A DNA stretch of 64,000 nucleotides, from positions 79,942 through 143,941 of the IMG/VR virus record IMGVR_UViG_3300018080_000112; one strand, 5' to 3'. The stretch comes from a virus. Positions 3,315-51,550 of this stretch are shown here, piece after piece (position 1 is the first letter of the stretch; each line of letters opens with the position of its first letter). The position numbers and the translations under genes are program-made. The notes under the pieces are model-generated. The model did no database searches. It saw only the letters and a program-made list of their open reading frames with translations, and had not been told where the DNA came from.

Positions 3315-3327
3315 GTTAGGACCTAAC
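3315..3327. repeat. 13-bp palindrome GTTAGGACCTAAC (copy 1)
   Basis: Exact match, intergenic. Confidence 0.9.
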
Positions 3328-3366
3328 TATCAGCACGCGAGCATGAAAACAAACAGCGTTACCTAT

Positions 3367-3396
3367 TAGAGACACATTTTTATCCGAAAACGAACC
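3367..3396 (-). promoter_or_regulatory. phage-specific promoter (copy 2)
   Basis: GGT TCGTTTTCGGATAAAAA TGTGTCTCTA. Confidence 0.75.
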
Positions 3397-3528
3397 GTTT
3401 TCCAGTGAAATAAAACCACCTTTTGACAACTACGACCTGAAACCCCAACAAAATCAAGGAAAAAGGTCCGCTCACAAAAGAGTAACCAGAAGCACCCCAT
3501 AAAAAGCACCAAGAAATCAAACACAAAT

Positions 3529-3558
3529 GGTTGCATTTCTACATTTTTCTTGTCTCTA
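3529..3558 (+). promoter_or_regulatory. phage-specific promoter (copy 3, plus strand, upstream of nrdJ)
   Basis: GGT TGCATTTCTACATTTTT CTTGTCTCTA; the only plus-strand copy, and it precedes the only plus-strand core gene. Confidence 0.7.
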
Positions 3559-3706
3559 TTAAAGAAAGCATCTAAAATGTAAGACCACCTCGCACAGTGG
3601 GCGGTAGCGTCTACCGAACAGACGACAGACCGAATACAGACCGATGATAGGGGATACAAGATAGGACAGTTTTTTTCGCCTCAAAACCATAGGAGAAGAA
3701 CGTTCA

Positions 3707-5587
3707 ATGACAACACACACCAACCTTTCAACCCAAACCATGGCGCGGCTCATCCATCACATGAAGTACGCCAAATACCTACCAGACCAGCAAAGAAGGG
3801 AAGAGTACAAAGAAACCGTTAGCCGGAACTTGATGATGCATGTCAAGAAATTTCCCCGGCTCGCACAAGAGATCTCAGAGGCTTACAAGTACGTTTTTGA
3901 CCGAAAAGTACTCCCCGCGATGCGATCAATGCAGTTTGCAGGGGAAGCAATCGAGCGCAACAACTGCAGGCTGTACAACTGTTCTTTTACCCACATCGAC
4001 CATCCAGACGTGTTTCAAGAGATTATGTTCCTCTTGTTGTCTGGTTGCGGCGTTGGGTACAGCGTGCAACAACAACACGTGGCGAAGCTTCCAAAGATAC
4101 AAAAGCCAGACGAACCCTTCACGTACAAAGTACCTGATTCAATCGAGGGATGGTCCCTTGCTGTGGGGAAGTTGATCGATGCTTTTTTGCGGGGTAAGCG
4201 CTTTCCAATCTTCGATTTTAGCGGAGTCAGACCAGCCGGATCACCAATCGTTACCAGCGGGGGGATCGCGCCTGGTCCTGGTCCTTTAAGCACTGCGCTT
4301 GTTGAGATACAGAACATACTGGTGAACAAGGCTCCTGGTTCGAAATTATCAACACTGGAGTGTCACGACATTCTTTGTCACCTTGCGCACGCCGTTCTCT
4401 CTGGCGGTGTCCGTCGTTCCTCTTATATCGCCCTTTTCAGCATTGACGACAAAGAGATGTTGGAGTGTAAGAGCGGCGAATGGTGGAAAGACAACCTCCA
4501 GCGCTCGCTTGCAAACAACTCCGCCGTGGTCTTGCGCAGTGAACTCCACGACCGAAGAGATCAAGTCAATGCAATCTGGGATCTCTTGGAAAACTCCCTA
4601 AGCGGCGAACCGAACATTTTCTTGACGAATGATCTTGATTGGGGTTGCAACCCTTGTGGTGAAATTGGCGGACCTAGCAACTTCTTTTGCAACCTGGATG
4701 AGATCAACGCGAGCAACGTCAAGAACCAGACAGACCTCGACCAGCGAGCGCTGATTGCTTCAAGGCTGGCGACCATTCAAGGCACATACACAGACTTCCC
4801 CTTCCTTCGCCCCATCTGGAAAGAAAGAGCCGAGCAAGCGGGTCTTATTGGCGTGGGAATGACCGGTATTTCTCGCGGGAACATTTTGGGTCTCAACCTC
4901 AAACGCGCCGCAAAAATTGTGCTGGCTGAAAATAAGCGTCTGGCGAAGCTTCTCGGCATTACAAAAGCGGAACGGTCCACAACCATTAAGCCATCTGGAA
5001 CGTCCTCTCTTGCCCTCTCAAATGGTCTTGTCGTGTCTTCTGGCATCCACCCCTACCACAGTCCCTTCTGGAAACGACGGATCACCGTCACACACACCGA
5101 ACCAGTCTACCAATATTTGATGAATGAACACCCCTGGCTTGTTGAGCCGTCCGCGTATCGACCAGAGAGGGAATCTGTGATTACTCTCCCGCAAGCCGCG
5201 CCAGATGGTGCAATCATGCGTGATGAGGGAGCCATGGCTCTTTTAGAGCGCGTCAAGTACTTCTATGACAACTGGATCTCCCCCGGTCACGTCACCGGAA
5301 AGAACACAAACAACATAAGCTGTACCGTATCTGTCAAAAAACATGAATGGCAAATGGTTCGGGATTGGTGGTGGAACAACACAGACTCTTTTGTGTCTCT
5401 CACCTTCATGAACTATGACGGCGGTGTCTACAAGCAAATGCCAATGGAAGAATGCAGCGAGAAAGAGTACAAGCGACTCGTCAAACAACTCCGACCCATG
5501 GATTTAAGAAGTGTGGTAGAGGAAAAGGATACAACGACAAGATCTCAAACTGTGGCTTGTGCTGGCGGTGCTTGCGAGCTAGTCTAA
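3707..5587 (+). CDS. nrdJ: class II (adenosylcobalamin-dependent) ribonucleotide reductase, monomeric RTPR type
   Basis: YNC, GGVRRS, NPCGEI thiyl-radical motif, TTIKPSGTSS, C-terminal CAGGAC redox pair; AGGAG RBS. Confidence 0.93.
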   Translation: MTTHTNLSTQTMARLIHHMKYAKYLPDQQRREEYKETVSRNLMMHVKKFPRLAQEISEAYKYVFDRKVLPAMRSMQFAGEAIERNNCRLYNCSFTHIDHPDVFQEIMFLLLSGCGVGYSVQQQHVAKLPKIQKPDEPFTYKVPDSIEGWSLAVGKLIDAFLRGKRFPIFDFSGVRPAGSPIVTSGGIAPGPGPLSTALVEIQNILVNKAPGSKLSTLECHDILCHLAHAVLSGGVRRSSYIALFSIDDKEMLECKSGEWWKDNLQRSLANNSAVVLRSELHDRRDQVNAIWDLLENSLSGEPNIFLTNDLDWGCNPCGEIGGPSNFFCNLDEINASNVKNQTDLDQRALIASRLATIQGTYTDFPFLRPIWKERAEQAGLIGVGMTGISRGNILGLNLKRAAKIVLAENKRLAKLLGITKAERSTTIKPSGTSSLALSNGLVVSSGIHPYHSPFWKRRITVTHTEPVYQYLMNEHPWLVEPSAYRPERESVITLPQAAPDGAIMRDEGAMALLERVKYFYDNWISPGHVTGKNTNNISCTVSVKKHEWQMVRDWWWNNTDSFVSLTFMNYDGGVYKQMPMEECSEKEYKRLVKQLRPMDLRSVVEEKDTTTRSQTVACAGGACELV

Positions 5588-8500
5588 CCCTTCTTACTTC
5601 CGAATCTCCCCTTCATATACTCTTCATACGGAACAGAACCAACTTGCTCTTCTATCTCTTGTCTCTTTGCTGATTCTATCGCCGCCTTGTGGGATGCCTT
5701 TGACCGCTCCACCGGACTCATAGACTCTTCCGCCGCAATCTGTTCTCTCCTCTTTGCCTGATACTCTTCGACCTCTTTTTGTGTAATATCAGAGAGACTC
5801 TTCAACGTGATACCAGTCGATACACTAGCGGGAATCCCAATACCTGTTCCGCTCAAAATAGCGCTCAAACCTGATAGGAATCCCTCTATATCACCTGTCC
5901 ACGTCGTTTTCCCCCGCAGTGGTGAGAGAATACCATCCAGGAAAACACGCAAACGAGAGGTTGGCTCAAGATCCGCACTCGGTAGCCGTTCCCTCACTTT
6001 CGTCATGATCTGTTCGTAAATGTCTGGCTCTTCCTCTGGCTCTTCCCGTTCAGAGAAACCTTCTCCCTTCGTTGTCTCTGTCGGTGGTGGAAACGTACCT
6101 TCTGAGACAAACGCGCCACCCGCTGCGCTGAGTTCTTGACTGGCTGTAGAAAACGGCACTTCTTCTTTCACCATGCTTGTGCTCGTTCGCTCTACTTGTA
6201 TCCGACAATCAATCCCAAATTCACTCATAAACATTCGAGGTAGCTCACCAGACACCACAAAGTGACTCACAATCTTAAAGGACCGCCTTGAATAGGTGTT
6301 CGCACAAGTAAACCCAAGGCGAAGTTTCTGGGGTGCTACTTCCTCAACAATAGCGTATGTAAGAGCGTTCCCAAGCTGTTCATTTCTGATCTGAACACGA
6401 GAAACAATGTTGCTCCAGTCATAACCCCACATCGTTGCTGTTTGACTCTCCAGATGAACCCACGTCGGCGGTACTTGCAGCGTTGTAGGGTCCGGCTCCT
6501 CGATTGTCTCCGCCGGTACTACAACAACGGGAACAGGCTCCTTTGTACCCGTCTTTTTGATCACAGACTCCCGCAACAAAAACGCATTAGTTGAACACGC
6601 CTCCAACCGTGGTGAGTTTTCCAGTTCAGGACACGCCTGAACATCCTTGATGATATCGTCACAGATCTCCACCGTTCGCTCTTGACTCACCGCCTGGATG
6701 CACTGCGCCGCATTTAAGAGACACTCTTGCTGTTGGATGATGGTATCGTTGAGACGGTGCATTCGAGCCGCTTCAATGTAACAAGCATACGCCATCACCT
6801 GGTTACACTCGTCACGGTACTTCTTACCAAAATTCGACAGATGGATTCCCATCATAAACGGGTCAAGCTGAGCGCGTAACTGGTCTGTAATCACTTTCGC
6901 CTTTAGGTCAGACACAAGACCGGAAACGGATTGCTCTTCTCGGATATATGGTTTCTTGAGACCCCAAAGGTCATTCTCCAGCGTCTTGAGAACATCTTGA
7001 ACCACAAACGACTCCGTCTCTTGTCGTTCTCGCAACTTCTTTGTCCAGTCCTCCAGCGGTTCACTCCAGGCTTGTTCTTCCTGGTCTTGTTCAAGCTGAA
7101 TGATCCAATCCCGCAACCGCACCCGTTCCTGCAATAGGTCACGAAAACACTGCGAAACGCCCGTAAAAGCTTGCCCTATGAACACCCGCTGAAGAGAGAT
7201 GATACCAGCCCCTACAAGCTTCACCTCCATCGAATGTTCTGCACCCGATGATTTCACCGTCACAGACTGCGCCGTTACTTGTTCCAGTCCCGAGAGGATC
7301 TTTGCTGTTCTCGCTTCTGTCTTTGATAGTTTCTTTGTGTCCAGCGGCACAGCTTTCTCAGACCAGATCGGCGGGACCTCTTTCGGGATCTCTTTCGGCT
7401 CTTCTTTCTTTAGTGGTTCCTTAGCTAACTCCGCTCTGTTTCGGTCCCTTATCAGCCGCTTGAACGCCTCCAATGTTTTCGCATCTTTGGGAACATTAGA
7501 GAACAACACCCGAAAAATCTCGGTTTCATCTGGCGTCATTTCAACGTAGCCGTCTTCTGTTGGGAAAGAGACCGAGAAAGGTTTTGGCTCCTCCACTACA
7601 GGACTCGCTTCGAAGGGGATCTTCCCCACTCCGCCGCATGTCTTACATTGTTCCTCGCCAAACAAAGAATAACCTCTCCCTTGACAGTCGTGACAAGGAA
7701 CCAGCGGCTCTTCTTTGACTGGTTCTCTTTCCTTCCAGCCCTCGCCATCACAAGAGTTACAATCGATCCCCATATCATCTGTACCGACTCCGTCACACCA
7801 GGAACAAAGCACGACGTTTGGTTTTGTAGGTATGACACCATAGCCGCGACACCGCGAACATGTGATGTGTACGCCTACTTCGGTTGTTTCCCCGTTACCC
7901 GCGCAAATAGGACACTCTTTGGTCAACCCTTCTTCTGGTTCTTCTTCCACGTAATGCCAGCCCATTCCGTCACAATCTGGGCACTTATAAGGACTCCCCG
8001 CATAACTTGTTTCACCCGTCCCCTTGCACCGAACACACCACTCTGTTTCTCTTTTTGTTATCTCTGGCTCTTCTTTTGCTGCAAAAGGAGAGAAGACAGT
8101 TCCTTCTCCCTGGCAAGAAGGACAAACACCAGTAACAGCGCCGCGCTTCTCCACGACTCTACCAAACCCTTGGCAGTACTCGCACTCTTCCACATACCAC
8201 CACCCCAAACCGCCACATGTTGAACACTCTTCTGTGTATGTTTTTGCGCTCTGTACGTGACCAATCCCATCACAATCAGGACACTCTTTCTTCCGCTTTC
8301 CGTACTTCTCTGCATCCACAGAGCCAGTTCCCAAGCAACCATTACAATCAATCTCGTGACCAGAGACGGACAAAACACCCGTACCACCACAATCTGGACA
8401 ATCCTTCTGTGCTTTCTTCTCTGGTTCTCTCGCCTTTACCTTTTTGGGGTACTTCACTTCCTTGGTGCGCGTCCCTTTCCCCAAACACGGGACACAAAAG

Positions 8501-8601
8501 AGCGAACTATCATGCGCCGCTCTTCCAGTCCCTTTACAAGCGGAACACTCCACGGATTCAAAAACAGGCTGTTTTCTCTTTTCTATTCCTTTCCACGCCA
8601 T
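5584..8601 (-). CDS. 1005-aa protein with 16 DnaJ-type CxxCxGxG zinc-finger repeats, helical mid region and possible DnaX-C/DnaA-N-like domain
   Basis: 16 CxxCxGxG motifs counted in the first ~330 aa; stop overlaps the nrdJ stop (CTAA). Confidence 0.75.
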   Translation of the reverse strand: MAWKGIEKRKQPVFESVECSACKGTGRAAHDSSLFCVPCLGKGTRTKEVKYPKKVKAREPEKKAQKDCPDCGGTGVLSVSGHEIDCNGCLGTGSVDAEKYGKRKKECPDCDGIGHVQSAKTYTEECSTCGGLGWWYVEECEYCQGFGRVVEKRGAVTGVCPSCQGEGTVFSPFAAKEEPEITKRETEWCVRCKGTGETSYAGSPYKCPDCDGMGWHYVEEEPEEGLTKECPICAGNGETTEVGVHITCSRCRGYGVIPTKPNVVLCSWCDGVGTDDMGIDCNSCDGEGWKEREPVKEEPLVPCHDCQGRGYSLFGEEQCKTCGGVGKIPFEASPVVEEPKPFSVSFPTEDGYVEMTPDETEIFRVLFSNVPKDAKTLEAFKRLIRDRNRAELAKEPLKKEEPKEIPKEVPPIWSEKAVPLDTKKLSKTEARTAKILSGLEQVTAQSVTVKSSGAEHSMEVKLVGAGIISLQRVFIGQAFTGVSQCFRDLLQERVRLRDWIIQLEQDQEEQAWSEPLEDWTKKLRERQETESFVVQDVLKTLENDLWGLKKPYIREEQSVSGLVSDLKAKVITDQLRAQLDPFMMGIHLSNFGKKYRDECNQVMAYACYIEAARMHRLNDTIIQQQECLLNAAQCIQAVSQERTVEICDDIIKDVQACPELENSPRLEACSTNAFLLRESVIKKTGTKEPVPVVVVPAETIEEPDPTTLQVPPTWVHLESQTATMWGYDWSNIVSRVQIRNEQLGNALTYAIVEEVAPQKLRLGFTCANTYSRRSFKIVSHFVVSGELPRMFMSEFGIDCRIQVERTSTSMVKEEVPFSTASQELSAAGGAFVSEGTFPPPTETTKGEGFSEREEPEEEPDIYEQIMTKVRERLPSADLEPTSRLRVFLDGILSPLRGKTTWTGDIEGFLSGLSAILSGTGIGIPASVSTGITLKSLSDITQKEVEEYQAKRREQIAAEESMSPVERSKASHKAAIESAKRQEIEEQVGSVPYEEYMKGRFGSKKG

Positions 8602-8615
8602 CTTGTTCCCCTAAT

Positions 8616-8628
8616 GTTAGGACCTAAC
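8616..8628. repeat. 13-bp palindrome (copy 2), supplies the TAG stop of the upstream gene
   Basis: GTTAGGACCTAAC. Confidence 0.9.
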
Positions 8629-9442
8629 CTTGATCAAAGGCTGTCAATTTCTCTACAAATGAGTGACCTGGTTTCTCGTCATTCAGTTCGATTTCCACTT
8701 CTTTTAGCGGCTTACCTATCAGCGGTGTCAGCTTTGTAGGGTCCGGCGGTCTCACCGGTGCCTTTTGGCGCTTCCTTCGCGGCTTACCGTTCTGTTTCGC
8801 TGCAATCATTGGCGGAGTTGGGGCTTGCCGTGGTCTTGAAGCGGTCACATCTTCTTCTTTCAGTGGTTCATTCTGGTAGCGCTTTCCAGTGGGGTCCTTT
8901 TGTTGCGCCTTGATCTCTTCGGTCAAGACCTCCAGATAATGATCCGCCGTCTCTTTTGATACCCCTAACTGTTCCGCAGACACTTCCGCCTTGAACTCTT
9001 GTGGGGGTCGTGGCTTGCCTTGTGGCTTGCCAACCGTCACTGGCACACTTTCCTCTTGCGCCGGTTGTGGTTTGCCTACAGGAGCGCTCTCGGGTGCCTT
9101 CTCGGGTGCCTCTTGTGGTTTTGTTGTGTCGTGTGGCTCAACATCTGGTTCACCTGGATTCCGCCGGTATCGACCAGAACAGTACGCCGCAAAATGCATA
9201 ATCGTGAACTGATCTGATTTGTGCAACTGGTTGAGATGGTGTTTCACATCTTCGTCTTGGCGTTCTGGATATCGGTAAAAATAGCACGCACCGAGAACAC
9301 CCAACATCCGGAACGTGAGAATTTTCTGGTCATACGCTTTGAACAGGTCACACATGGAGTATTTGATCTCCACTGTCCCTTCGTAATCTTCGCCGTCCAT
9401 TGTCTTGAAGGCAATAGCGATCTCATCTTTGTTCGGTTTCAT
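8624..9442 (-). CDS. hypothetical protein; N-terminal domain paralogous to 11305..11754, Pro/Lys-rich tail
   Basis: ATG 9442 with GAGGAG RBS; shared N-terminal pattern. Confidence 0.7.
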   Translation of the reverse strand: MKPNKDEIAIAFKTMDGEDYEGTVEIKYSMCDLFKAYDQKILTFRMLGVLGACYFYRYPERQDEDVKHHLNQLHKSDQFTIMHFAAYCSGRYRRNPGEPDVEPHDTTKPQEAPEKAPESAPVGKPQPAQEESVPVTVGKPQGKPRPPQEFKAEVSAEQLGVSKETADHYLEVLTEEIKAQQKDPTGKRYQNEPLKEEDVTASRPRQAPTPPMIAAKQNGKPRRKRQKAPVRPPDPTKLTPLIGKPLKEVEIELNDEKPGHSFVEKLTAFDQG

Positions 9443-9485
9443 CCGCCGCACTCCTCTTTTGTGTCATTGTGAAACGGTCTACTAA

Positions 9486-9530: not shown

Positions 9531-10385
9531 TCAGGAAGGAGAAGACTCAGTTTGTTGTTTCTCTTGCGCATCTTCAGCGGCGATATAAAGCTGAACAAAC
9601 TTCTTCAAAGCAAAGTACTGGTGAAGAAGTTGAGAGTTCCAATCCGAACAATCGATCCCTTCTGTGTCCTTGTACACATCGAAATATGCCTCATACCAGG
9701 CTTGTTCCGCCGGACAATAGCCGCCGCATAACCGACTCTCGTACTCATCCCACAACTCTCGCCAGCGGGTCCGCAGTCCCTTGATCTTCTCCAGTGCTGC
9801 AAGCGCTTCTTCCGCCTGCAGATCGATATCTTCTTCCTCCAGAAGCAACTCAAAGTTCTTGTCCTTGAGTTCTGCAATCTGGTTGTCAAGCTCAATTACG
9901 TCCGGTGATTCGTCCGTCTCGCCTTGCTTGAAAAGAACATCGATCCCGCACGAAAGGTCATGCATTTTCTCCTGCACTTCCTGGATCGCTTTTTGGGTCT
10001 CCATCACCACTTCGTGATCTTCTCGCAAGTGTTCGAGATGCAACTCCGCCTCTTTGATCAAAAACGTCTTCTGTCTGTGAACCGGCGTCACCTTCTCCAT
10101 GAAATAATCAAGGTGATCGTGCTTGCTGTTCAGCGTGCTCAGGAGCCACGAGAGCGCATCCGGACCACTCGGGACAACGCAGAGGTCTTGCAGATCTCCA
10201 TGGAAGAGTATCGTGTTCGCAGACACTACCACGCGAAAGCTGTACATGCTGGTTCCTGGTTTCTGACAATACCAGCGTCCTTCCCCCTCTTTGATCAGAA
10301 TATGATCCTTGAGAGAGGGATCTGAGAGCGCCTTCATATGCGCTCGCCACTCTTTCGAGTTATATTTTTCCTCATACTGTGACAT
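9531..10385 (-). CDS. hypothetical phage protein with central coiled coil
   Basis: 284-aa ORF overlapping its upstream neighbour. Confidence 0.7.
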   Translation of the reverse strand: MSQYEEKYNSKEWRAHMKALSDPSLKDHILIKEGEGRWYCQKPGTSMYSFRVVVSANTILFHGDLQDLCVVPSGPDALSWLLSTLNSKHDHLDYFMEKVTPVHRQKTFLIKEAELHLEHLREDHEVVMETQKAIQEVQEKMHDLSCGIDVLFKQGETDESPDVIELDNQIAELKDKNFELLLEEEDIDLQAEEALAALEKIKGLRTRWRELWDEYESRLCGGYCPAEQAWYEAYFDVYKDTEGIDCSDWNSQLLHQYFALKKFVQLYIAAEDAQEKQQTESSPS

Positions 10386-10881
10386 GCAATTCTTCCCCTG
10401 TCTTTTGTTCGATGGTTGTCAACATCTTCCGCGCCGCATCTGTAAGACGCCACTTCTTTTGTCCTGAACAGTCGCCGCACACCTCGATCAGTCCCTTTGT
10501 GACCAATGAGGGAAGAGAACCCGCCCCTCTCTTTTGGGATACCGTTGCAGGTTCCTCCTTGCACTTCAGGAAAATGAGCGCCTTTTGTTCTCCCATTGTC
10601 AAATCAATCCAGCGGTATCGCTTCGTGACCTTCGCCTTCTTTGTTCCCTTCTCGATACAAGAGGGACACAACGCCTTTGGAAAGGGTGTGAGACCTTTAC
10701 AGCCCGGACACTTCATTGGAGTAACGGAAGGACCATTCAACGACCAGCCAGAGCCAGCCGGATAATGACGCGCCCAACCAGCCGCGCCGCAAAGCTCACA
10801 TACATAATAGCCGTTAGAAGGGTCTTGTTTCCATTTGTGATCTTTTCGGTCCTTGCAAGGATTCCAATCCGCCACGTTCAT
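10372..10881 (-). CDS. zinc-ribbon plus winged-helix-like hypothetical protein
   Basis: CELC, CPGC, CPSC; SLVTKGLIE...WRLTDAAR wHTH-like end. Confidence 0.6.
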   Translation of the reverse strand: MNVADWNPCKDRKDHKWKQDPSNGYYVCELCGAAGWARHYPAGSGWSLNGPSVTPMKCPGCKGLTPFPKALCPSCIEKGTKKAKVTKRYRWIDLTMGEQKALIFLKCKEEPATVSQKRGAGSLPSLVTKGLIEVCGDCSGQKKWRLTDAARKMLTTIEQKTGEELHVTV

Positions 10882-16472: not shown

Positions 16473-16485
16473 GTTAGGTCCTAAC
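16473..16485. repeat. 13-bp palindrome (copy 3), supplies the recA TAG
   Basis: GTTAGGTCCTAAC. Confidence 0.9.
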
Positions 16486-17623
16486 CTTTCTTTTTCTTCT
16501 TTCCCGTCTCTTTCGGGTCTGGTGCTTGCGGGATCTTGTCACTTCCAGGAAGTTCCGGCATCGTGGGTTTGGGCTTGCCTGCAGGGATCACTTGTGTCGC
16601 CCGTTGTTCCTCCATCTTTCGCAGAACGTCCGCCTTCAACGCCTCGAATCGTTCCTCATTCTCTCGAAGTTCAATGACAACATTATCTTTGCCTTGACCC
16701 AATGCTTTCGCGCCATACTGATACCAGGACCCTTTCTTTTCGATGATACCGAAATCCACGGCACAATCCATGATTTCGCGGTAAGGGTCAAAACCACGAC
16801 CAAAAATCAAGTCAATCTCCGCTTGCGCAAAGGGCGGAGCGAGCTTGTTCTTGACTACCTTCACCCGTACCGTGTTCCCAAGAACATCTTCGCCTTTCTT
16901 GAGTGTGGCGATACGCCGGATATCCAGCCGTACAGATGCATAAAACTTCAAAGCATTTCCGCCGGTAGTGGTCTCTGGATTTCCGAACATGACACCAATC
17001 TTCTGGCGAAGTTGGTTGATAAAGATCACCGTTGTCTTTGTCTTGCCTATGATGCTTGTCAGCTTCCGCAAAGCTTGACTCATCAGGCGAGCTTGTAGCC
17101 CCATGTGACTGTCGCCCATATCACCTTCGATCTCGGCTCGCGGAACGAGCGCCGCCACAGAATCAACCACAGCAAGATCAAATCCGCCGCTACTCACCAC
17201 GATATCCAGGATCTCCAGCGCTTGTTCTCCATGGTCTGGTTGAGCCAGATACAAGGCATCTGTGTCAACGCCAAGGTTCTGAGCATACGCCAGATCAAGC
17301 GCATGTTCCGCATCGATAAAAGCGCACGCGCCGCCACGTTTCTGAATCTCTGCGATTGCATGCAGTGTCATTGTGGTCTTGCCACCGGACTCAGGTCCGT
17401 ATATCTCGATTACCCGTCCCCTTGGATAACCACCGACACCCAACGCGATATCGAGCTTCATGCTTCCCGTGGGGAATGTATCAACGACCTGAACGGGCGC
17501 ATCACCCAATTGTTGAATCGCACCCTTTCCGTACTGTTTCTCGATTAGATTCACCGCCGCCTGACGAGCTTTTTCTCTCGGATCTTTTGGTTCCTCTTTC
17601 GGGTCTTTCGTCTCTTTTCCCAT
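16481..17623 (-). CDS. recA: recombinase RecA
   Basis: GPESGGKTT Walker [34 protein letters not shown]. Confidence 0.97.
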
Positions 17624-20356: not shown

Positions 20357-20369
20357 GTTAGGTCCTAAC
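20357..20369. repeat. 13-bp palindrome (copy 4), 1 nt after the polA stop
   Basis: GTTAGGTCCTAAC followed by TTTT on minus strand. Confidence 0.9.
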
Positions 20370-27207: not shown

Positions 27208-27278
27208 TGTTCTGTTCCCCTGTCTATATCAGTTTATGTTCGTTGTCTGTCACATCGTGACACAAAAGGTAAGGGAGT

Positions 27279-27293
27279 GACTTTTTTCTGACT
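27279..27293. promoter_or_regulatory. GACTTTTTTCTGACT box (also at 28711-28725 and 39456-39470)
   Basis: Exact 15-mer in three intergenic regions. Confidence 0.6.
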
Positions 27294-28625: not shown

Positions 28626-28734
28626 GGCAAAAACTCCTTGCTTTCGTTTAACATGCAACCGAGAACTCTCTCAGCGCACAAATAAAATCTCTCGAAAAAA
28701 GTGAGGGCTAGACTTTTTTCTGACTCACTTCTTT

Positions 28735-29816: not shown

Positions 29817-29829
29817 GTTAGGTCCTAAC
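29817..29829. repeat. 13-bp palindrome (copy 5), supplies the primase TAA
   Basis: GTTAGGTCCTAAC. Confidence 0.9.
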
Positions 29830-35184: not shown

Positions 35185-35590
35185 TCGCCGCCGCCTCTTT
35201 CTCTTTGTCAGTAGACAGCGCCTCTCGGTCATACAGTTCCTCTTGTAGCGGAACCATAAAGTGAGGCATCGCCAGCAAAAAGAACTCCACATCATCAATC
35301 TGGATAAAGAACCCGTACATGGAACAACGAAACTGTTCGACACCGGCGGTCTCATACCAGTACGGGTCCTCTTTCAAGCGCTTCATACCGCGAAGAAGAC
35401 CAGACTGCGAGACCATCATCTTCGCCACAAACGCCGCCATTCCGAACTCCCCAAGAGCGTCTGCGCCGGACCTCATAATCTCTTTGACGCCTTCTTCTGT
35501 CTCCAGCTTCCGTTTTAGCTCTTCCTCTGTCATGGTCGAATCCTTCAACTCGATGTTAGGACCTAACCCTTCTTTTTCAGCCATCACCAT
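35174..35590 (-). CDS. hypothetical protein
   Basis: Overlaps both neighbours. Confidence 0.65.
   Translation of the reverse strand: MVMAEKEGLGPNIELKDSTMTEEELKRKLETEEGVKEIMRSGADALGEFGMAAFVAKMMVSQSGLLRGMKRLKEDPYWYETAGVEQFRCSMYGFFIQIDDVEFFLLAMPHFMVPLQEELYDREALSTDKEKEAAANDE
35555..35567. repeat. 13-bp palindrome (copy 6), 16 nt after the J-domain gene stop and inside the next ORF
   Basis: GTTAGGACCTAAC. Confidence 0.9.
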
Positions 35591-39372: not shown

Positions 39373-39506
39373 ACTAAACAACAAAAAAGTTTTAATGTCG
39401 TTGCCCCGTGGGTGATTCCAGACATTACGAAGGAACCACAAAAAAATGAGGGCAAGACTTTTTTCTGACTGTTGCGTTTTCAGAAATGAGGAAAATCAAA
39501 CATGAA

Positions 39507-39977
39507 TCAGAGGATAGACGAAAGGTCACACCGGATCGGTTCTGCGCCTTGCATCACCAAATTCAGACCATCATAATTGACCCGCAAAAGTCGCAACCGA
39601 TAATCATCCGGAACATGAATCGCCATAATTCGAGGGACGGTAGTCTTCACCTCTTTCACACCGGCGCTCTGAAGGATCTCTTTCTTCGGCATACGCCGAA
39701 CAAGGTCCTTCTCTTCCCGCCGAAACAGGATAAATATCTGCGTCAGCTTTCGTTGCGAAAAGAGTGCATGACACCGCTGAGCCAGCTTAATCATACAACC
39801 ATAGTTGCATGTACAAGTTCGCTCTTCCTCCAAACAAATCATCGCGGGAGTCTGGGGGTGGTCTTTTCGCCAGAGGAGATCTTCTGGCAAAATATCTTTG
39901 AGACCCACAAGTAACGTATGATTCTTTATGATGTGACAGGGGATTTGACCCAATTGGGCGACCTCAATTCGAGGCAT
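39507..39977 (-). CDS. hypothetical protein
   Basis: AAGGAGG RBS before ATG 39977. Confidence 0.6.
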   Translation of the reverse strand: MPRIEVAQLGQIPCHIIKNHTLLVGLKDILPEDLLWRKDHPQTPAMICLEEERTCTCNYGCMIKLAQRCHALFSQRKLTQIFILFRREEKDLVRRMPKKEILQSAGVKEVKTTVPRIMAIHVPDDYRLRLLRVNYDGLNLVMQGAEPIRCDLSSIL

Positions 39978-40010: not shown

Positions 40011-40023
40011 GTTAGGTCCTAAC
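40011..40023. repeat. 13-bp palindrome (copy 7)
   Basis: GTTAGGTCCTAAC, 15 nt after the tail-spike stop. Confidence 0.9.
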
Positions 40024-42913: not shown

Positions 42914-43591
42914 TCACTGATCTTTCGAGTTCGTTACCATTCGATGAAGGTCTTCAACAAAGGGCAAGTGATTCTCCAATGTACCACCTTCTATCTGGTC
43001 GATCCACCACTGGAGTTCTTTTTCCACAACATCCTTGAAAGGGAACATCCAATAATACCAGCGACCCACAAATTGCTTTGTGATCCACACTGGCGGTTTC
43101 ATCTTCTTTTCTGTTCCTTCGTTGTAGCGCCAATGGCTGATCGCCATTGTCATCCCGAAAGCTCGCATCTCGTACTTCTTTCGCCAGTACGCCGGGAGAG
43201 GCAACGCACACAACAAAAACAGAAGGGAGAACAACCAGCCTGCACTTCCCCAGATGGCTCCTAGCGCCAACAGACTCAACACAGCAAGGATCTGTGGAAA
43301 GAGATACAGAATTGCAAAGAGAGGACCCAACCGGCGCGAATCGTCCGCATGAATCATCTCATGGGGTAACACCTCCACAACCGTGTCATCTTCTTCGATC
43401 ATCGACTTCGGAAAATAGACGGTGGACCCGATTGTTGTGATGTATCCGGTCATGAACTCCGGGTTGAAAAAGAGAATCTTGTTGATGATTTTCATCAAAA
43501 GAGACTCTTCCTTCACCTTGACGTGAACCCCACGAAAACTCGCGTACTCCTCTATCTTCTCTCGCAACTCTGATATATTGCTCATCTTCAT
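42914..43591 (-). CDS. membrane-associated zincin-like metallopeptidase (HExxH)
   Basis: TTIGSTVYF, PHEMIH, two TM helices, downstream YEMRA third ligand. Confidence 0.65.
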   Translation of the reverse strand: MKMSNISELREKIEEYASFRGVHVKVKEESLLMKIINKILFFNPEFMTGYITTIGSTVYFPKSMIEEDDTVVEVLPHEMIHADDSRRLGPLFAILYLFPQILAVLSLLALGAIWGSAGWLFSLLFLLCALPLPAYWRKKYEMRAFGMTMAISHWRYNEGTEKKMKPPVWITKQFVGRWYYWMFPFKDVVEKELQWWIDQIEGGTLENHLPFVEDLHRMVTNSKDQ

Positions 43592-43605: not shown

Positions 43606-43618
43606 GTTAGGACCTAAC
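43606..43618. repeat. 13-bp palindrome (copy 8, extends to 15 bp), supplies the MTase TAG
   Basis: GGTTAGGACCTAACC. Confidence 0.9.
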
Positions 43619-45458
43619 CTTTCTCGCCATCGCTGTTCATGAAATCGAAAATAGAGGTTTGACCCTTTCCCTCTTTCTTGATCTTAGTCTCGATCATTTT
43701 TCGAGCTTTATCCAGCGATCCAAGCTGATCAAACTCAATTTGTTGTTTCGCCGCCTCGACTCGCTCTGTCGCAATCTCAATATAATCAGCGTTACACTCC
43801 ACACCGAGGAATCTGAATCCTTCCATCAACGCAGCAACACCTGTGGTTCCACTTCCTGTAAATGGGTCTAATACAACCCCCTCCGGCGGCGTCACCAAAC
43901 GAACCAGATAGCGCATAAGCTTGATCGGTTTGACTGTGGGGTGGATATTGGTTCTCTTTGTCTCTCCGCGTTGATACGGGGTGTCTATCGGTGTGCTTCG
44001 ACCATTGGTGACCTTTTTGCCATTTCGTTCCTCTAGCCCCTCCTCTTTCTCAGATCGGGACGCTTTCGGAATGTAGATGAACGGAGGAGCCGCTTCCAGG
44101 TTTAGAAAAAACCGCGCCGCTGTCCCCTCATCCTCATAACCTGTTCTCTCCACTGGTTTTGTGACCTTGCCACCCACATAACCATCGCTTTGCCAGCCAG
44201 CTTGACCGCCTTCGTGTCCTTTACTACTCCCGCTTTGTTCCCCGAGAAGACGAACAGGACACTGTGGAACACACACATAGTCCTTCACTTCCTCTTTGCC
44301 GTCGTTGCTTACTTGACCATCCGTGTACTGAACAGAGCCAATCCCGAACATAGAGGCGTCACCGTCTCCCTTTGACGCCTTACCACTCCCGTTTGAAGGC
44401 TTGACTCTCTTTGTTCCTTTGCAGATGCAGTCCGGGTGATGCGTCAGCAACAAGTGACTAGGCCAGCGACCCTTCAATTCTCCCTCTGTAGTCTGTCTAT
44501 ATGTTTCCTCAGAGGTTCTAACTTGCCAGCTTCCTTCGTCCTCGTACTTGATCACCGTCTTTGATTTGCGCCGCGCCGCCGCTGTGGATTGTTCTCCCTG
44601 AAAAGAGATCCGACAAGCGTCAATATTCACCGCGCCTGTTCCGAACTGGAGAACAGTTTCAGCAACCGACCCGATCAACGGTTTGCGAGCCAACCACCAA
44701 TCTTCTACTGATGGCTTGAGCGCGAGACCATATCCTTCATACGCTTGTGCTTCTGGTGTCGCCGGTCTCGTTATAAACGCTTCCACTTCATCTTCTTGTG
44801 GTTCTGCACGTCCGTAGTTGTCGCCCTTCATATCAAAGTGACGCCCGTCAAGATTCGGATTTGAGCCTACCACTTCTCGAAATGTTCCCGCTTCGCGTTC
44901 CAGGCGTTCACGAAGCTCATCATGGACCGAAAGAAGTTTCTTGACCGCTTCTTTGTCTCCTTCTTTCTTTGCGTCTTGCACGGCTCGCTTGGCGTCATAA
45001 AGAGCCTGTTTCTCTTCCCCGTGTTCCTTGAGCCACAGATGGAACATGTGTTTGTCTATCGCCTTCGACACATCCATGTTTTTCGGGAATCCTGAACCCA
45101 CGACGTGCGCAATTCGGTCCCTGATCTCAAAACCAGCAGACTCGATAGCCCACGCAGTCCAATGGCTTGTTCGCGGAATAGCCCAACACAACATGTGTCC
45201 ACCGGGCTTGAGAACACGCAAGCAAGCGGTCATCACGTCCGTCATCCACGAGACCCACGCATCCCGACCACCCTTGTCCGTATCCCAATCTTTGTTCATG
45301 AATGCGATACCAGACGGCTACGGAGGGTCAGTCACGATTGCATCGCATGTGTTGTCCGGCAATTCCCGCAACACATCCAGGCAATCTCCCAGACGAAGCT
45401 GATATGACTCTTCGCCTAGAATTGACTGACCCAATTCTCCTTTTATTTGTTTACCCAC
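43614..45458 (-). pseudogene. beta-class N6A/N4C DNA methyltransferase with in-frame TAG (45318-45320) right after the catalytic DPP; pseudogene or recoded
   Basis: GTG 45458 with GGGGAG RBS; GDCLDVLRELPDNTCDAIVTDPP*PSGIAFMNKDWD in frame with ORF 43614..45299; HPTVKP, DPFTGSGTTG. Confidence 0.8.
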
Positions 45459-46461: not shown

Positions 46462-49059
46462 TCACTTAAAAAGTACCGGGATCTCGATAACACGGTCCTT
46501 TTCATCGTAGAACGTAACATGTACACCAGCGGCGCGAACCTGTTCAATCAGCCACGCGAGCCGCATTAACAAAGCATTTCCGTCCAGCAACGCGGAGAAG
46601 GAAAAACCATCACGACGCGGCTGAGAATCTGTCAATGTTGAAGTCTTTACAATAGAAACACCGAGAACCACGGAAGGATCGATGTTACTGACTTTGAAAG
46701 CATCGTGGCTAAAATCGGGAATGAACCCGCGCTCAAACTCGAAATAACCGCTGGTTGGAGTTGTAAGTTTTACACCGTCATAATCAATCGTTTCTTGCGT
46801 ACCATACGAGAAATCAAGCAACGCCTTCCCAGATTCATCAGGGAAACCGAGAGGTGTGGCAAGCACACCTGCCAGCGCTGTAAGGGGCAACTCTTCGTGA
46901 TACGACGCAACTCGCGACCCGGCAAGATGTGACCGGACAAGACCAGACACATAAATTACGTTGCTGTCTCCTCCTGTTCCCTTTCCCCAATAGTAAAGCT
47001 CAGGTCTCCCAAAAGTACCTTCAGAGGAAACCACAACACGAGATGGATAGCCCGGATGTGGATTGTCCGGATGCGTCCGCCAAGCGTTCACTTGTGCTGT
47101 TGTTGGGAGATAAGAAGCATCATCCACAACAAGATCAAAAGGCTGATAATACAACGTCACCGGACCTGGCAACGTCACCGTCTGCAACCCCAGAGTCTTT
47201 GGAGATGTTGCGGGATCAAAAGATTCTACAAGAAGCTGATTCGCCATATAAATACGCGCATCATTTGGGTCTGTTCTGTTGACAGACGCCAGCGCATAAA
47301 TAGAAGACACGCTGTCTTTTCGAACCGTCGTGGGTCCACGAGAAGATGTGTCATACAAGTAGGGTCCAGGAAACTTACCCTCTGGCGTGGCTGGCGGAGG
47401 ATAACCCGCTTCTGGAAGATGATCACTGTAGGTAGGAACAACAGGATCTGTACCATAAATACGGCGCAGTGTTGTTCCTGCGCCGTGCGTGTTCGCTAGT
47501 GGTCTCGCCAAAGGCAAGCGCACCATTCCATTGGGGTCATCAACAAGCTCAACCCACGTCAAATTGTTCGCTATATCCGTGGAAAACGTAGGAGCCACGG
47601 CAAGCCCCAACTGAGGAACAAAGTACTCTGTGTTCCCCGTAGGAACCCACCACGTAACACTTGAGACCTCAATTCGACCGAGATAACCCGTTGTGTCATA
47701 CACACGGAAGTGCAAATTCGGCGACTGTGTTCCTTCCGCGATGCCATTCAAAGGAGCATCAATAGAGAACAAAAAAGTGGACGCTGTGATCTCCGAAGTT
47801 AAGCGCCGTCTTTGCCAGGGAGTTCCTGTAACAAACACCAACTCTTCGCTTCCACCACCTTCGTCTAAAATCCAGGTGCCATACACATCTTCCAGCCGAC
47901 AAGGACAATCAAGCCATGTGTTGTTGACAATCGAGGCATATCCGAGACCGCCGGGAACCTCATCTCGCTGAATCCAGCGGATCGTGACTCCTTTTTTCAG
48001 TCTCTTCGTAGCTGGCAACGGAGAACCCAGAGTAAACGTCAATGTGTTCGGATTGTAACCCGTCGCCGGTGTCAGCAACACAGTTGTGTCCCGCTCTTCC
48101 GGGTCTATCAAAATCTGCGGAGTTGTTGGAACCGCCATTGTGACAGACTCTTCAAGCTTGAGATCAGATGTACCACCCGGCGCTTCTTCACGAAGTCTCG
48201 CTTCTTTCCAGGGAAGCATGTGCAGATACGCATTTCCAGGCAAGCCAGAGCGTGTTATTTGGTCACACAAGATCTTGATGAACACACGACGCGCCTGCGT
48301 CTCTATCAGCTTCCAACAACCCCCTTGCATAAACAAAACTGTGTCGGCGGTCTGGTCATTCGCCAATGGCTCTGACAAACGAACTCTTCTGAGGTAGTGA
48401 TCTGTCGTGACCAGTGTCACATCTTCCTCATTAGGTCCACCCGGATCAAGAACACCAGTTCCATACAAAGGCATGCGGTCAAAAACGGGTCTGTCAAGGT
48501 CAGAGACCTGTCGAAGGACTCCGCTGGTCAAAACCACTGTTCCACCGGAAACAGCGCCGGTGAGGGTATCGCCTGTTTGAAATTCGCCCCCTCTCCGCAC
48601 GTTGTAGTGAATCTTTCCGTCTTGCTTGTCGTGATATCGGAAACGAGCCGACACCCCAGAACCGTTTGTGATCAACTCGTCATGTTGGAAATTCGTTAAA
48701 TTCCAGGTCGTATAGTCCGAGTACTCGATGTTTGGGTTACAAACGATATAGCCGTCACCCGCTTCTCGGTCAATCTCCAGGTCAAAGACAAGGTTGTTGT
48801 AGGGTCCAAGGGTGATTTCAAGAAGTTGCCAGAACGCCGCTGGAATGGTCTTGTAATCCGCCATCAGCGCCTGAGCACAAGCCCGGAAGAAGTCATCATC
48901 AAAGAATCCAAGCGGTGGTCGATGTACTCCGTAATTACCTGCAATCGCAGTGAGATAATTCCCCACAGACCAGCGAAGCAACATCATCCGGCGAACCATC
49001 TGAATCGCAGACCGAATCGGAACATCCGCCGGAATCAAAGTAGTTAAATCAAGAGCCAT
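46462..49059 (-). CDS. virion structural protein (baseplate wedge/tail-associated)
   Basis: N-terminal YL..IAGNYGV.RP..DDDFFR and C-terminal VRAAGV, as in baseplate wedge (P2 gpI/Mu gp48-like) proteins. Confidence 0.65.
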   Translation of the reverse strand: MALDLTTLIPADVPIRSAIQMVRRMMLLRWSVGNYLTAIAGNYGVHRPPLGFFDDDFFRACAQALMADYKTIPAAFWQLLEITLGPYNNLVFDLEIDREAGDGYIVCNPNIEYSDYTTWNLTNFQHDELITNGSGVSARFRYHDKQDGKIHYNVRRGGEFQTGDTLTGAVSGGTVVLTSGVLRQVSDLDRPVFDRMPLYGTGVLDPGGPNEEDVTLVTTDHYLRRVRLSEPLANDQTADTVLFMQGGCWKLIETQARRVFIKILCDQITRSGLPGNAYLHMLPWKEARLREEAPGGTSDLKLEESVTMAVPTTPQILIDPEERDTTVLLTPATGYNPNTLTFTLGSPLPATKRLKKGVTIRWIQRDEVPGGLGYASIVNNTWLDCPCRLEDVYGTWILDEGGGSEELVFVTGTPWQRRRLTSEITASTFLFSIDAPLNGIAEGTQSPNLHFRVYDTTGYLGRIEVSSVTWWVPTGNTEYFVPQLGLAVAPTFSTDIANNLTWVELVDDPNGMVRLPLARPLANTHGAGTTLRRIYGTDPVVPTYSDHLPEAGYPPPATPEGKFPGPYLYDTSSRGPTTVRKDSVSSIYALASVNRTDPNDARIYMANQLLVESFDPATSPKTLGLQTVTLPGPVTLYYQPFDLVVDDASYLPTTAQVNAWRTHPDNPHPGYPSRVVVSSEGTFGRPELYYWGKGTGGDSNVIYVSGLVRSHLAGSRVASYHEELPLTALAGVLATPLGFPDESGKALLDFSYGTQETIDYDGVKLTTPTSGYFEFERGFIPDFSHDAFKVSNIDPSVVLGVSIVKTSTLTDSQPRRDGFSFSALLDGNALLMRLAWLIEQVRAAGVHVTFYDEKDRVIEIPVLFK

Positions 49060-49085: not shown

Positions 49086-49098
49086 GTTAGGTCCTAAC
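49086..49098. repeat. 13-bp palindrome (copy 9), 2 nt after the bfr stop
   Basis: GTTAGGTCCTAAC followed by TTTTT on minus strand. Confidence 0.9.
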
Positions 49099-49100
49099 AA

Positions 49101-49625
49101 TCAATCGTCGTGATCTTCCTCATCTTCTTTCGGCTCTTCTCGCATGCCGTTGAGATACCGCTCAAGACCAACCTGCTTGATGACGGTGAGTTGACTCGTC
49201 AACCAGTCATAGTGCTTCTCTTCGTCTTCCAGCAACCGTTCAATCAGGACCACAGTCCCGTTGTCTTTATCCTCTCGTGCTTGCTGGATCACCAGGTTGT
49301 AATGACGAATCGCGTCCTCTTCAAGCTTGATATTGTGGCGAATCATCGCCTCCACACTTGCGCCTGGATCAACATCATTGAGCTTAAACTTGGGGACTGC
49401 ATCAAAGAACACAACACGCTCCATCAACAAATGGACGTGGTTCATCTCTTCGATTGCTTCCTTCTTCAAAAGAGCGTGCAACTTGAGATAGCCCCAACCC
49501 GCACAAAGCTCAGATTGAATGAGGTAGGTCGAAATCGCCGTGACCTGATCCGACAAAGAATCATTCAACAAGCCAAGCAACTTCGTAGAAATCTTTCTCG
49601 CTTTGGAAATACGTGTTTGGAACAT
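49101..49625 (-). CDS. bfr: bacterioferritin
   Basis: WGY.KL, EAIEEMNH (haem Met), LEEDAI..YN, DEEKHYDWL, IKQVGLERYL. Confidence 0.9.
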   Translation of the reverse strand: MFQTRISKARKISTKLLGLLNDSLSDQVTAISTYLIQSELCAGWGYLKLHALLKKEAIEEMNHVHLLMERVVFFDAVPKFKLNDVDPGASVEAMIRHNIKLEEDAIRHYNLVIQQAREDKDNGTVVLIERLLEDEEKHYDWLTSQLTVIKQVGLERYLNGMREEPKEDEEDHDD

Positions 49626-49657
49626 CGTTACACCTTCTTATAGGGGATGAAGAGACC

Positions 49658-51496
49658 TCATTTATCGTCCCAATCATCTACAGTAAACCTTCCGCCGATT
49701 ATCTCATCACTTTGCTGAATCCCGATCAAGATGCGCCTTGTCAAGCTGTCTTGATTCAACAAGCCCACATCTTTCTGAAGATCGCGACCTTCATCTACCT
49801 TTGTACGTCGCGCCCGGTACTCTACCGGCAAACCACCCGGACAGAAGGACAACCCATATTCGTCCTCAAGGTTCTGAACCAGTAATGTATAGAGACCCCA
49901 AGGCGTATGAATCGCCGTATCCAAATACACGAAGCGGGGGTTACCTTCGCCAAGGCGTTGTTCGGGCTGTTCAGGGTCTACAGGAGCCTTGAACTGTTGC
50001 GGGAGCACTCGCTTGACCACAACCGGTTCTTCGTCACCCTGAGCTTGTATGACGTAATTTGAGGGTGTTCTCAGTGGGGTTCCATCACGGACAGGTCCGG
50101 TGAACTCCACCAGCAAAATATCTTCGGCAATCGGAACAACCCGCTTGAGAGAGACACAATCCGCAGTCAAGAAACAGCAAATCTCTTCCGCGCTGTTCCC
50201 TTCCATATCGTCCACCATAATCCGGAAACAAACCTTGCTGTCTGCGTCCCATAGCGGGTCAGTGGTCGGTCGATTGATCGTGACTGTGTAAACACCTGGA
50301 CTTGGCGAGATAATGGACCCGGAAAAGTTCAGCAACCAGATAGATCCATTCTGGAGAATCTGTGTCCAAGGTCCAATCGTATCAGGTCCGTAATAAACTT
50401 GCAGTGTCGAAAGGTCCACATCACTATCTGTGTCCACAATCTGGAAACTGAACGCCGTGTTTCGAGGAGCACGCCGCTCGTCACCTTCTGTCAAGCCAAG
50501 ACCACACTCTGGATCTTCGTTGATGATGTCCGGCTCGTCATTGTCCTTGTGCTCCATCGTAAAGGAGCACTCATGAATCGTCTCGTTCCCATCCAGGTCC
50601 AGGACCCGCGTCTTGATCAAAACAATATCATCACTCTGGATGTATCCAGCCGGAACCGTGATCGAAACATCTCGGTCAAGAAGAGGGTCAACACCCGGCG
50701 TTATCACACATGTGATGGTCGGCGCATGTGGTTGCAGCGCACCGTCTCGGATCTTGAGAAGAGAACCGCCGTACTGCGATGTAACACTCAACCAAATCAC
50801 AATCGAAGCATCATCAATACCAGAGCCGCCCGTTGGGTACGGAAGATCTTGTATGCTGTACGTGATGTTAGTGAGCGGGAGAGCAACCCCCACAGATGTA
50901 CAAGCCGGATTGTAGTTGTACACCCGTGGAGGCTCCTCTTCCTTACTCTCAAGATACCAGGAGCCACTTCCGTAACCACCCGCCATTGAACCTTCGCTGA
51001 TGCTCATCCCTTCGTGCGGCTCTTCGTCCAGCCCGTTGGGAAAAACATCATTGCTGTTCAAGCGGTCAACCAAAACCCCGTCCTGGCTGTTGATCTGGTT
51101 CACCCCTAACAGGTCCCGGTTGTTCCAGGAGCCGACTGTGATCGGAACCTCATTCCCGGTCCCTGATTCGGACCCGAACACCGTTGTTGTCTTTGCTCTG
51201 TAGTGATACACACCCGGAGTAGGAGGAATGTCCACATAGAAAAACGAGTCCCGGACCACACCGGACACATCTGACCATGTGAGACCCAAATCATCAGACC
51301 GCTCAACCACGAATCCGTCATACCCAGAAGGCAATAATGACAACTGAGGAGCCGAGAGTTGGATCAATGCGGATGCGCTGATACCAGTCAAAGACGAATA
51401 CCGGTCCAATGGTTGTGTGTAAACCAAAATATCAGGGATGATCGGCTGATCATCGCCAGGTATGTCTATTTGAAACTGATACCAGCGGAACGCCAT
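49658..51496 (-). CDS. virion structural protein with Fn3/Ig-like domains
   Basis: VERSDD...W...YHYR Fn3-like domain, repeated beta-sandwich modules; AGGAG RBS. Confidence 0.65.
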   Translation of the reverse strand: MAFRWYQFQIDIPGDDQPIIPDILVYTQPLDRYSSLTGISASALIQLSAPQLSLLPSGYDGFVVERSDDLGLTWSDVSGVVRDSFFYVDIPPTPGVYHYRAKTTTVFGSESGTGNEVPITVGSWNNRDLLGVNQINSQDGVLVDRLNSNDVFPNGLDEEPHEGMSISEGSMAGGYGSGSWYLESKEEEPPRVYNYNPACTSVGVALPLTNITYSIQDLPYPTGGSGIDDASIVIWLSVTSQYGGSLLKIRDGALQPHAPTITCVITPGVDPLLDRDVSITVPAGYIQSDDIVLIKTRVLDLDGNETIHECSFTMEHKDNDEPDIINEDPECGLGLTEGDERRAPRNTAFSFQIVDTDSDVDLSTLQVYYGPDTIGPWTQILQNGSIWLLNFSGSIISPSPGVYTVTINRPTTDPLWDADSKVCFRIMVDDMEGNSAEEICCFLTADCVSLKRVVPIAEDILLVEFTGPVRDGTPLRTPSNYVIQAQGDEEPVVVKRVLPQQFKAPVDPEQPEQRLGEGNPRFVYLDTAIHTPWGLYTLLVQNLEDEYGLSFCPGGLPVEYRARRTKVDEGRDLQKDVGLLNQDSLTRRILIGIQQSDEIIGGRFTVDDWDDK

Positions 51497-51537
51497 TGTG
51501 GTATCTCCTGATTATACTGTTTGACGCCACACCAAAA

Positions 51538-51550
51538 GTTAGGACCTAAC
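51538..51550. repeat. 13-bp palindrome (copy 10)
   Basis: GTTAGGACCTAAC, 1 nt after a stop. Confidence 0.9.

Follow-up and report, generated by a model that had tools for sequence, protein, structure and literature searches.

A 64,000-nucleotide stretch of viral DNA (hereafter the window), which is the last 64 kb of the 143,941-bp IMG/VR virus record IMGVR_UViG_3300018080_000112 (contig G000; 49% G + C, rated 89% complete), carries ten exact copies of a 13-bp palindrome, GTTAGGWCCTAAC, at or near the 3′ ends of genes. What recognizes this element, and why is it repeated along the genome of a phage? We consider it probable that the palindrome is a docking site on double-stranded DNA, of the parS or KorB-operator type, for an orphan, dimeric ParB-family protein of the phage itself, with the KorB–OB pair as the closest known counterpart. 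The computed features behind this view are the invariance of the site, its positional conservation and even spacing, the weakness of the corresponding RNA hairpin, a parB gene with a palindrome doublet upstream, and a palindrome that changes with the ParB lineage. From these we infer that a ParB of this type binds the 13-mer and, by analogy with studied relatives, that it may act as a CTP clamp.

The palindrome and its distribution

An exact motif search of the window recovered all ten copies listed in a preliminary description of the sequence and found none with one or two mismatches, and 100 dinucleotide-preserving shuffles of the window gave no match to the 13-mer. The same description had proposed mapping the element genome-wide; the full record holds 28 exact copies together with a single variant carrying one mismatch. 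Only the central base (W) varies among the copies, as had been noticed in the window, and the other 12 bases are fixed; on the coding strand the centre is A in 12 sites and T in 16, with no strand bias relative to transcription. The flanks are also symmetric (A at −3 in 23 of 28 sites and T at +15 in 21 of 28; C absent at −1 and −2, G nearly absent at +13 and +14) and extend the palindrome to a 19-bp dyad, the outer positions of which are not complementary within single sites. Isolated half-sites are rare, yet exactly as a Markov model predicts, so that there is no signal of depletion. A scan of reference bacterial and archaeal genomes gave, among the matches listed, only single scattered hits, a weak negative which argues that the element is not a host repeat, and the exact 13-mer had no match in the literature searched.

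The copies are also evenly spaced. Gaps in the window measured 2452–9460 nt, in agreement with the 2.5–9.5 kb of the preliminary description, and over the full record the 28 sites are separated by 4758 nt on average (range, 1476–9460 nt; coefficient of variation, 0.455). When 28 sites were placed randomly on the approximately 200 gene junctions of the contig, the coefficient of variation was about 1.0, and the observed arrangement was more even than every one of 20,000 permutations.

Genes lie nearly all on the minus strand of the contig and, read on this strand, 21 of the 28 sites fall between 12 nt inside and 40 nt past a stop codon, with eight or nine sites supplying the stop codon themselves. 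Fifteen sites precede the next start by 6–41 nt, the majority being no more than about 40 nt from the last stop as well, and transcription must therefore read through these tight gaps; many sites are followed directly by the ribosome-binding site (RBS) and start codon of the next gene.

The gene-end placement first described for the window holds copy by copy. Four copies contain a stop codon: the copy at 8616..8628 supplies the TAG of ORF 8624–9451 and lies 14 nt before the start of a 1005-aa ORF (5584–8601); that at 16473..16485 contains the TAG of a UvsX/RecA-like gene (16481–17623) and is followed by a 132-nt gap with repeat boxes and P2, a promoter-like motif described below; that at 29817..29829 contains the TAA of the primase gene (29818–30903), 16 nt before ORF 29552–29800; and that at 43606..43618 contains the TAG of the DNA methyltransferase gene (43614–45299), 14 nt before ORF 42914–43591. 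Five further copies lie 1–16 nt past a stop, namely 20357..20369 (1 nt past the intein-bearing DNA polymerase gene 20371–23856 and 24 nt before ORF 19910–20332), 51538..51550 (1 nt past ORF 51552–52094 and 41 nt before the 612-aa ORF 49658–51496), 49086..49098 (2 nt past ORF 49101–49625 and 26 nt before the 865-aa ORF 46462–49059), 40011..40023 (15 nt past the 952-aa ORF 40039–42897 and 33 nt before ORF 39507–39977) and 35555..35567 (16 nt past ORF 35584–36060). The tenth, at 3315..3327, is 38 nt past the stop of a 97-aa ORF (3366–3659, minus strand). Six window copies precede a T run on the coding strand, as had been reported; the runs are short and lie on the minus strand. The 1005-aa protein (5584–8601, minus strand) shows a weak PHROG match (E = 7e-9, residues 157–238) to Q-like antitermination proteins.

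Relatives of the phage allowed the sites to be compared across diverged genomes. A search with the RecA/UvsX protein gave 80 loci at about 60% identity, which belong to unrelated phages without the 13-mer, and IMG/VR searches with single proteins (the 865-aa protein and the helicase) found no relatives. Scanning IMG/VR for the 13-mer itself gave only one true relative, G001; a provirus with four copies was discarded as unrelated, its copies being a coding repeat that reads LGPN. With P1, a 22-nt strand-specific promoter-like motif of this phage (GTCAGAAAAAAGTCTTGCCCTC, up to four mismatches), as the query, 32 metagenome contigs were retrieved, approximately 19 of them related, and contigs from one sample set proved syntenic with G000 at about 70–75% DNA identity. 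Nine orthologous comparisons, covering eight sites, showed the 12 fixed bases to be kept in all nine, with ±40-nt flanks only 54% identical and the central base flipped in three. Among the window copies, those at 29817 and 35555 are kept with a flipped centre in L262 and L268, respectively, and that at 40011 is kept in both L257 and L268. L256 lacks the site at 44338 of G000 but, following a local rearrangement, carries a copy at a different junction. Two relatives, L301 and L302, carry intragenic copies, in frame and reading LGPN, in a conserved gene of about 550 aa that follows the portal gene; they occupy different positions of the variable linker of this gene, and L305 has none there. Such in-frame copies fit a DNA site that is needed somewhere in an 8-kb stretch without gaps, and a terminator or cleavage site in a structural gene makes little sense.

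An orphan ParB-family protein as the candidate binder

A candidate for the binding protein is P0013, a 396-aa protein encoded at 8685–9875 of contig L254. It matches Pfam ParB_N at 27.4 bits (cut-off, 26.3), with HTH_ParB just under its cut-off (21.6 against 22.6 bits) and RepB also below cut-off, and contains GFRR and ENVQRED, motifs that correspond to boxes II and III of ParB (GxRR and ENxQR). Its sequence matches in the PDB are structures of Spo0J, Noc, and KorB (E = 2.6e-8 to 5.6e-6), and in a Foldseek search with its structure model (core pLDDT approximately 80) the top hits were all members of the ParB family, including Spo0J (TM 0.72), Noc, ParB, and KorB (TM 0.63). On L254, two palindrome copies 57 nt apart are followed by P1, P2, an RBS, and then the P0013 ORF. 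Homologues of 81% (L301) and 74% (L302/L303) identity were found, and a palindrome doublet lies 170–240 nt upstream of the parB start in four of the four contigs with P0013 or a 74–81% homologue (L254/L305, L301, L302/L303); the 28 sites of the main contig include no doublet of the 13-mer. The gene order is conserved as parB, genes for proteins of 131, about 180, and about 240 aa, and portal.

The two hallmarks of a canonical ParABS system, a ParA ATPase partner and a ParA-binding motif, were not found. The motif, [LFI]G[KR]G[LFI], does not occur in any of the six ParB homologues (P0013 and P0014–P0018), the 144-kb contig has no AAA_31 match, and no ParA family is on record among the neighbours of parB. 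All six homologues read GFRR at the position where studied ParBs read GERR, and all have long, disordered N-terminal tails rich in Lys, Thr, and Glu. The Glu of GERR is needed for CTP hydrolysis in the studied ParBs, and GFRR in its place may give a long-lived clamp.

Comparison with more distant lineages points to a link between palindrome and protein. L267 (with L307/L308), which comprises 38.7 kb of an 86.6-kb contig, is a distant syntenic relative with a helicase 43% identical to that of the present phage, and on its contig a ParB homologue with 30% identity to P0013 (E = 4e-40) accompanies orthologues of window genes. The 13-mer is absent from L267, which has a palindrome of its own with a TTTAGC-NN-GCTAAA core; its 12 copies in 38.7 kb are all intergenic, none is mismatched, the centre occurs in both orientations, and the gaps are mostly 2–9 kb, save three tight clusters. 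A doublet of this palindrome lies about 200 nt upstream of parB, a triplet follows the portal gene, and another copy stands upstream of the orthologue of window ORF 39507–39977, where the present phage has the site at 40011. In L304, which represents a third ParB lineage, yet another palindrome is placed upstream of parB and at a gene end, and the helix-turn-helix (HTH) recognition helix differs among the three ParB lineages. Protein and site thus change together in this small sample, with three ParB lineages, three palindromes, and three recognition helices. The triplet of lineage 2 lies at 82885–82966 of L308 (record coordinates), where the copies are about 40 nt apart and directly follow the intein-bearing portal gene; the helicase gene of this lineage carries an intein as well. 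In L287, an unrelated viral contig (59% G + C), a 15-bp palindrome with KorB-type half-sites, GTTTAGC-N-GCTAAAC, is found at 7522, 9768, and 11006 around the ParB gene.

A palindrome lattice is not a property of every phage ParB, since among 27 distant phage ParB loci surveyed only four had a palindrome in at least three copies, compared with four of 72 control loci. Many phage members of the ParB fold are uncharacterized (PMC12704722). We also considered a link to the thymine dioxygenase partners of phage ParBs, but discarded it because those ParBs lack a DNA-binding domain (PMC13229309); no Tet_JBP match was obtained here, but the control was also silent.

The phage has no close cultured relative. 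G000 encodes a family A DNA polymerase with an intein, a UvsX/RecA-like recombinase, a gp32-like single-stranded DNA-binding protein, an SbcD-like nuclease, a primase, a DnaB-like helicase, a second helicase, a methyltransferase, a CobT/AAA pair, a ribonucleotide reductase, and a sigma-70-family protein. No tyrosine integrase, ParA, ParB, or portal was found on the 144-kb contig, and portal and tail genes (sheath, baseplate) are absent despite its completeness rating. G001 (17.4 kb), which carries the 13-mer, contains a myovirus tail module. The idea that two unrelated phages share the motif was rejected, as G001 is the tail module missing from the window's contig and comes from the same samples. 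A helicase identical to that of the window's contig occurs in samples 3300017987, 3300017989, and 3300017991, which are the source samples of the ParB–portal and tail contigs, and all three kinds of contig share P1, P2, the palindrome, and G + C content. These coincidences argue for a single phage population. Contigs from the same samples with portal or tail genes (L113, L254, and L263) add more than 50 kb, and the real phage genome is probably larger than 200 kb; if the contigs are combined as one genome, the tally is approximately 41 non-redundant sites in about 200 kb. Among other features of these contigs, L113 carries a free-standing LAGLIDADG homing endonuclease gene (3992–4831) inside its tail module, and a 104-nt non-coding stretch, possibly a small RNA, is 91% identical between L254 (2936–3039) and G000 (49114–49217).

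The preliminary description had favoured a site for a dimeric protein over a plain hairpin and had named parS-like logic among its options. This proposal is supported by the invariance of the palindrome, by symmetric flanks that do not pair and by the weak RNA hairpin described below, and further by the positions kept in diverged relatives, the in-frame copies and a ParB-family gene preceded by a doublet. Several points nevertheless weigh against ParB as the binder. The window's own contig has no ParB_N match and the parB gene lies on other contigs, the link between the two being drawn from sample co-occurrence, shared regulatory motifs, and L267 with both modules on one contig. Co-variation of protein and site covers three ParB lineages, the third of which has just two sites, and the chance of a site upstream of parB in all three is by rough estimate about 1%, which is suggestive and not proof. 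With GFRR, the Glu on which CTP hydrolysis depends in studied ParBs is missing, and the clamp may therefore behave differently from theirs. A transcriptional role would also explain why most sites on the contig are at gene ends, many with a short T run, and another dimeric protein of phage or host could be the binder.

Other explanations of the palindrome

This last alternative would make the palindrome the operator or roadblock of a different dimeric DNA-binding protein that gates read-through at gene ends, as a symmetric analogue of stoperators or of the Cluster O palindromes. Dyad symmetry and invariance fit it, as does the position of three quarters of the sites (21/28) within 40 nt of a stop, with a few directly upstream of promoter-like motifs; Cluster O phages, moreover, carry 34 copies of an invariant 17-bp palindrome to which no binder has been assigned (PMC4351075). 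We nonetheless judge it unlikely. The only known doublet of the 13-mer is at parB, and palindrome and ParB lineage change together. Among the window proteins scanned no HTH was found, and the two that the preliminary description had taken for winged-HTH proteins (10372–10881 and 23843–24400) have no DNA-binding domain in Pfam. Nor is there a sign of a host regulon, the hits in reference genomes being single and scattered among the matches listed. Palindromes show no significant preference for promoter-bearing junctions (odds ratio 1.9, p = 0.28), a result that argues against a role centred on promoters alone.

An RNA-level signal, that is, a factor-dependent terminator, a processing site, or a 3′-end stabilizing hairpin in long same-strand transcripts, would suit a genome with nearly all genes on one strand and sites at their 3′ ends, and would also suit flanks that are A-rich upstream and T-rich downstream and palindrome arms that change compensatorily between lineages. 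The folding of six sites makes it improbable. The RNA hairpin of the palindrome reached approximately −3 to −7 kcal/mol, five of the six sites folded no better than shuffles, and in three the minimum-energy fold did not contain the palindromic stem. Within a genome there are no G–U or other pairing-preserving variants of the palindrome, and the orientation of the centre is indifferent to transcription. In-frame copies in a structural gene of two relatives and the many sites directly before an RBS and start codon likewise speak against a role in the transcript. The palindrome is not an intrinsic terminator, its hairpin being weak, its sequence invariant, a T run present after only some copies, and some copies lying in frame within a gene. 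The terminator and RNA-processing options of the preliminary description are disfavoured by the weak hairpin, the gaps that must be read through, and the in-frame copies.

The palindromes might also stand at the borders of exchangeable gene cassettes, either as scars of recombination, as the preliminary description had suggested, or as its hot spots. Cluster O phages show deletions between their repeats (PMC4351075). In the present group, some differences between relatives are edged by the palindrome (the 44338 region of G000 versus L256, and 52019 of G000 versus L265), and a 6.4-kb insert of this phage corresponds to two adjacent palindromes in lineage 2. However, in the region sampled best (L256), most of the 0.4–0.6-kb indels are not edged by a palindrome, and the suggestion gains little from this comparison. 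Scars would not stay perfect, evenly spaced, or in frame within genes, and we regard recombination as a very improbable origin of the sites and a side effect at most. Least credible of all is a restriction- or modification-related site built around the internal GGWCC, a common restriction target: although the phage encodes a DNA methyltransferase, GGWCC is not avoided elsewhere in the contig (392 observed against approximately 262 expected), the conserved unit is 13–19 bp, and the lineage-2 palindrome lacks GGWCC, which leaves the methylation idea raised earlier unsupported.

The promoter-like motifs themselves fall into two kinds. P1 is present in 14 copies in the whole contig, three of them in the window (27271–27292, 28703–28724, and 39448–39469); it is always co-directional with genes and nearly unchanged in all related contigs, and no convincing sigma-70 −10/−35 pair is readable in it. 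P2 is a strand-specific motif of about 40 nt (GTGGT, 4 nt, TTTTGAC, about 6 nt, GTGTCTCTA) found upstream of genes, with 16 copies in the contig, those in the window being at 471, 3367, 16320, 19853, 33222, and 39343. Together with the sigma-70-family protein of the phage (window 24397–25128), P2 suggests phage-specific promoter classes. The palindrome copy at 3315 lies about 40 nt downstream of the P2 core at 3367 with no ORF between them (window 3315–3375), an arrangement that could give a very short transcript or a promoter gated by the palindrome.

A proposed ParB clamp on a phage genome

The clamps formed by ParB, KorB, and Noc are gated by CTP; they load at palindromes and slide from there. 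By analogy, the ParB of this phage, encoded beside the portal gene and outside the incomplete contig of the window, would bind the palindromes as a dimer, be loaded at every one of them as a nucleotide-gated clamp, and from there slide or spread over a few kilobases. About one site per 4.8 kb would be kept along the whole genome, in any short intergenic gap or, where a gap is missing, in frame inside a gene. Clamps loaded at such evenly spaced sites would cover the whole chromosome, and this coverage would explain both the even spacing and the in-frame copies. The effect of the coating may be global control of transcription, condensation or organization of the genome for packaging, or shielding, and the constant position of parB beside the portal gene hints at a link with packaging. 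We propose only tentatively, as a possibility that may well prove wrong, that a large virulent-type phage coats its entire chromosome with an orphan ParB clamp at selected sites about 5 kb apart, as a genome-wide switch or scaffold. Such a coat would silence or time transcription, condense and individualize replicated genomes for packaging, or shield them from host nucleases.

The IncP-1 plasmid RK2 carries 12 OB operators on 60 kb, approximately one per 5 kb, and we know of no report of even spacing for them. KorB–OB resembles the present pair in combining a ParB-family protein with a 13-bp palindrome that has a free central base (PMC11790492), in the similar density of its dispersed sites and in having a site at the protein's own gene. 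The OB core, TTTAGCGGCTAAA, shares the TTAG...CTAA skeleton with the palindrome of this phage, and OB half-sites are the half-sites of lineage 2. KorB, a CTP clamp, slides as far as 1.5 kb from its site and reaches promoters (PMC11790492). In contrast to KorB–OB, the replicon here is that of a large virulent-type myovirus with T4-like replication genes rather than a plasmid, the sites number at least 28 (about 41 with the other contigs) and lie at gene ends or inside genes where OB is placed chiefly at promoters, an IncC/ParA gene was not found, and box II has GFRR. The replicon, the number and evenness of the sites, their placement, the lack of a detected ParA, and GFRR are the features that set the phage system apart.

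Noc with its NBS sites in Bacillus (structures 7nfu and 7ol9) is also similar, being an orphan ParB paralogue without ParA that has many dispersed palindromic sites chromosome-wide, and Noc is among the best sequence and fold matches of P0013. Noc, however, is cellular and serves division control by tethering DNA to the membrane, and the site density here is more than ten times higher. Phages P1 and N15 likewise encode ParB-family proteins (ParB/SopB) that act at palindromic parS sites, and N15 has four separate inverted-repeat sites scattered in its genome (PMC7205306), but these systems partition a plasmid prophage with ParA/SopA, whereas on the 144-kb contig of the present phage neither ParA nor a tyrosine integrase was found. 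In Cluster O mycobacteriophages, the 34 invariant copies of the 17-bp palindrome have a variable centre and no orientation relative to transcription; they occupy short gaps between genes as well as some coding positions, and the host genome has none (PMC4351075). A third of those sites are within genes, however, no binder, function, or ParB link has been reported for them, and both the phage group and the motif are unrelated. The stoperators of Cluster A mycobacteriophages such as L5 are also 13 bp long and occur dozens of times per genome in short intergenic gaps, but they are asymmetric, orientation-dependent, and bound by the monomeric immunity repressor of a temperate phage (PMC9283540), whereas the palindrome described here is a perfect dyad with its central base divided 12 A to 16 T on the coding strand.

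The literature searched contained no description of genome-wide ParB sites in lytic phages. Established roles of the ParB family of CTP clamps are the partition of chromosomes and plasmids (ParB), the silencing of plasmid genes (KorB), and the control of division (Noc); if the tentative reading of a chromosome-wide coat is true, the ParB-CTPase fold would gain a new cellular role in lytic infection. About 40 evenly spaced loading sites in a phage in which neither ParA nor a tyrosine integrase was found would extend the ParB switch to the organization of viral genomes, in a simple and testable system of one protein and one 13-mer. The even spacing would give an indirect estimate of the clamp travel needed in vivo, approximately 2–2.5 kb to each side, and the three lineages offer three orthogonal protein–site pairs for DNA labelling or synthetic regulation. 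The same principle would explain the puzzling dispersed palindromes of phage genomes, among them the Cluster O repeats, which have been published but still lack an explanation.

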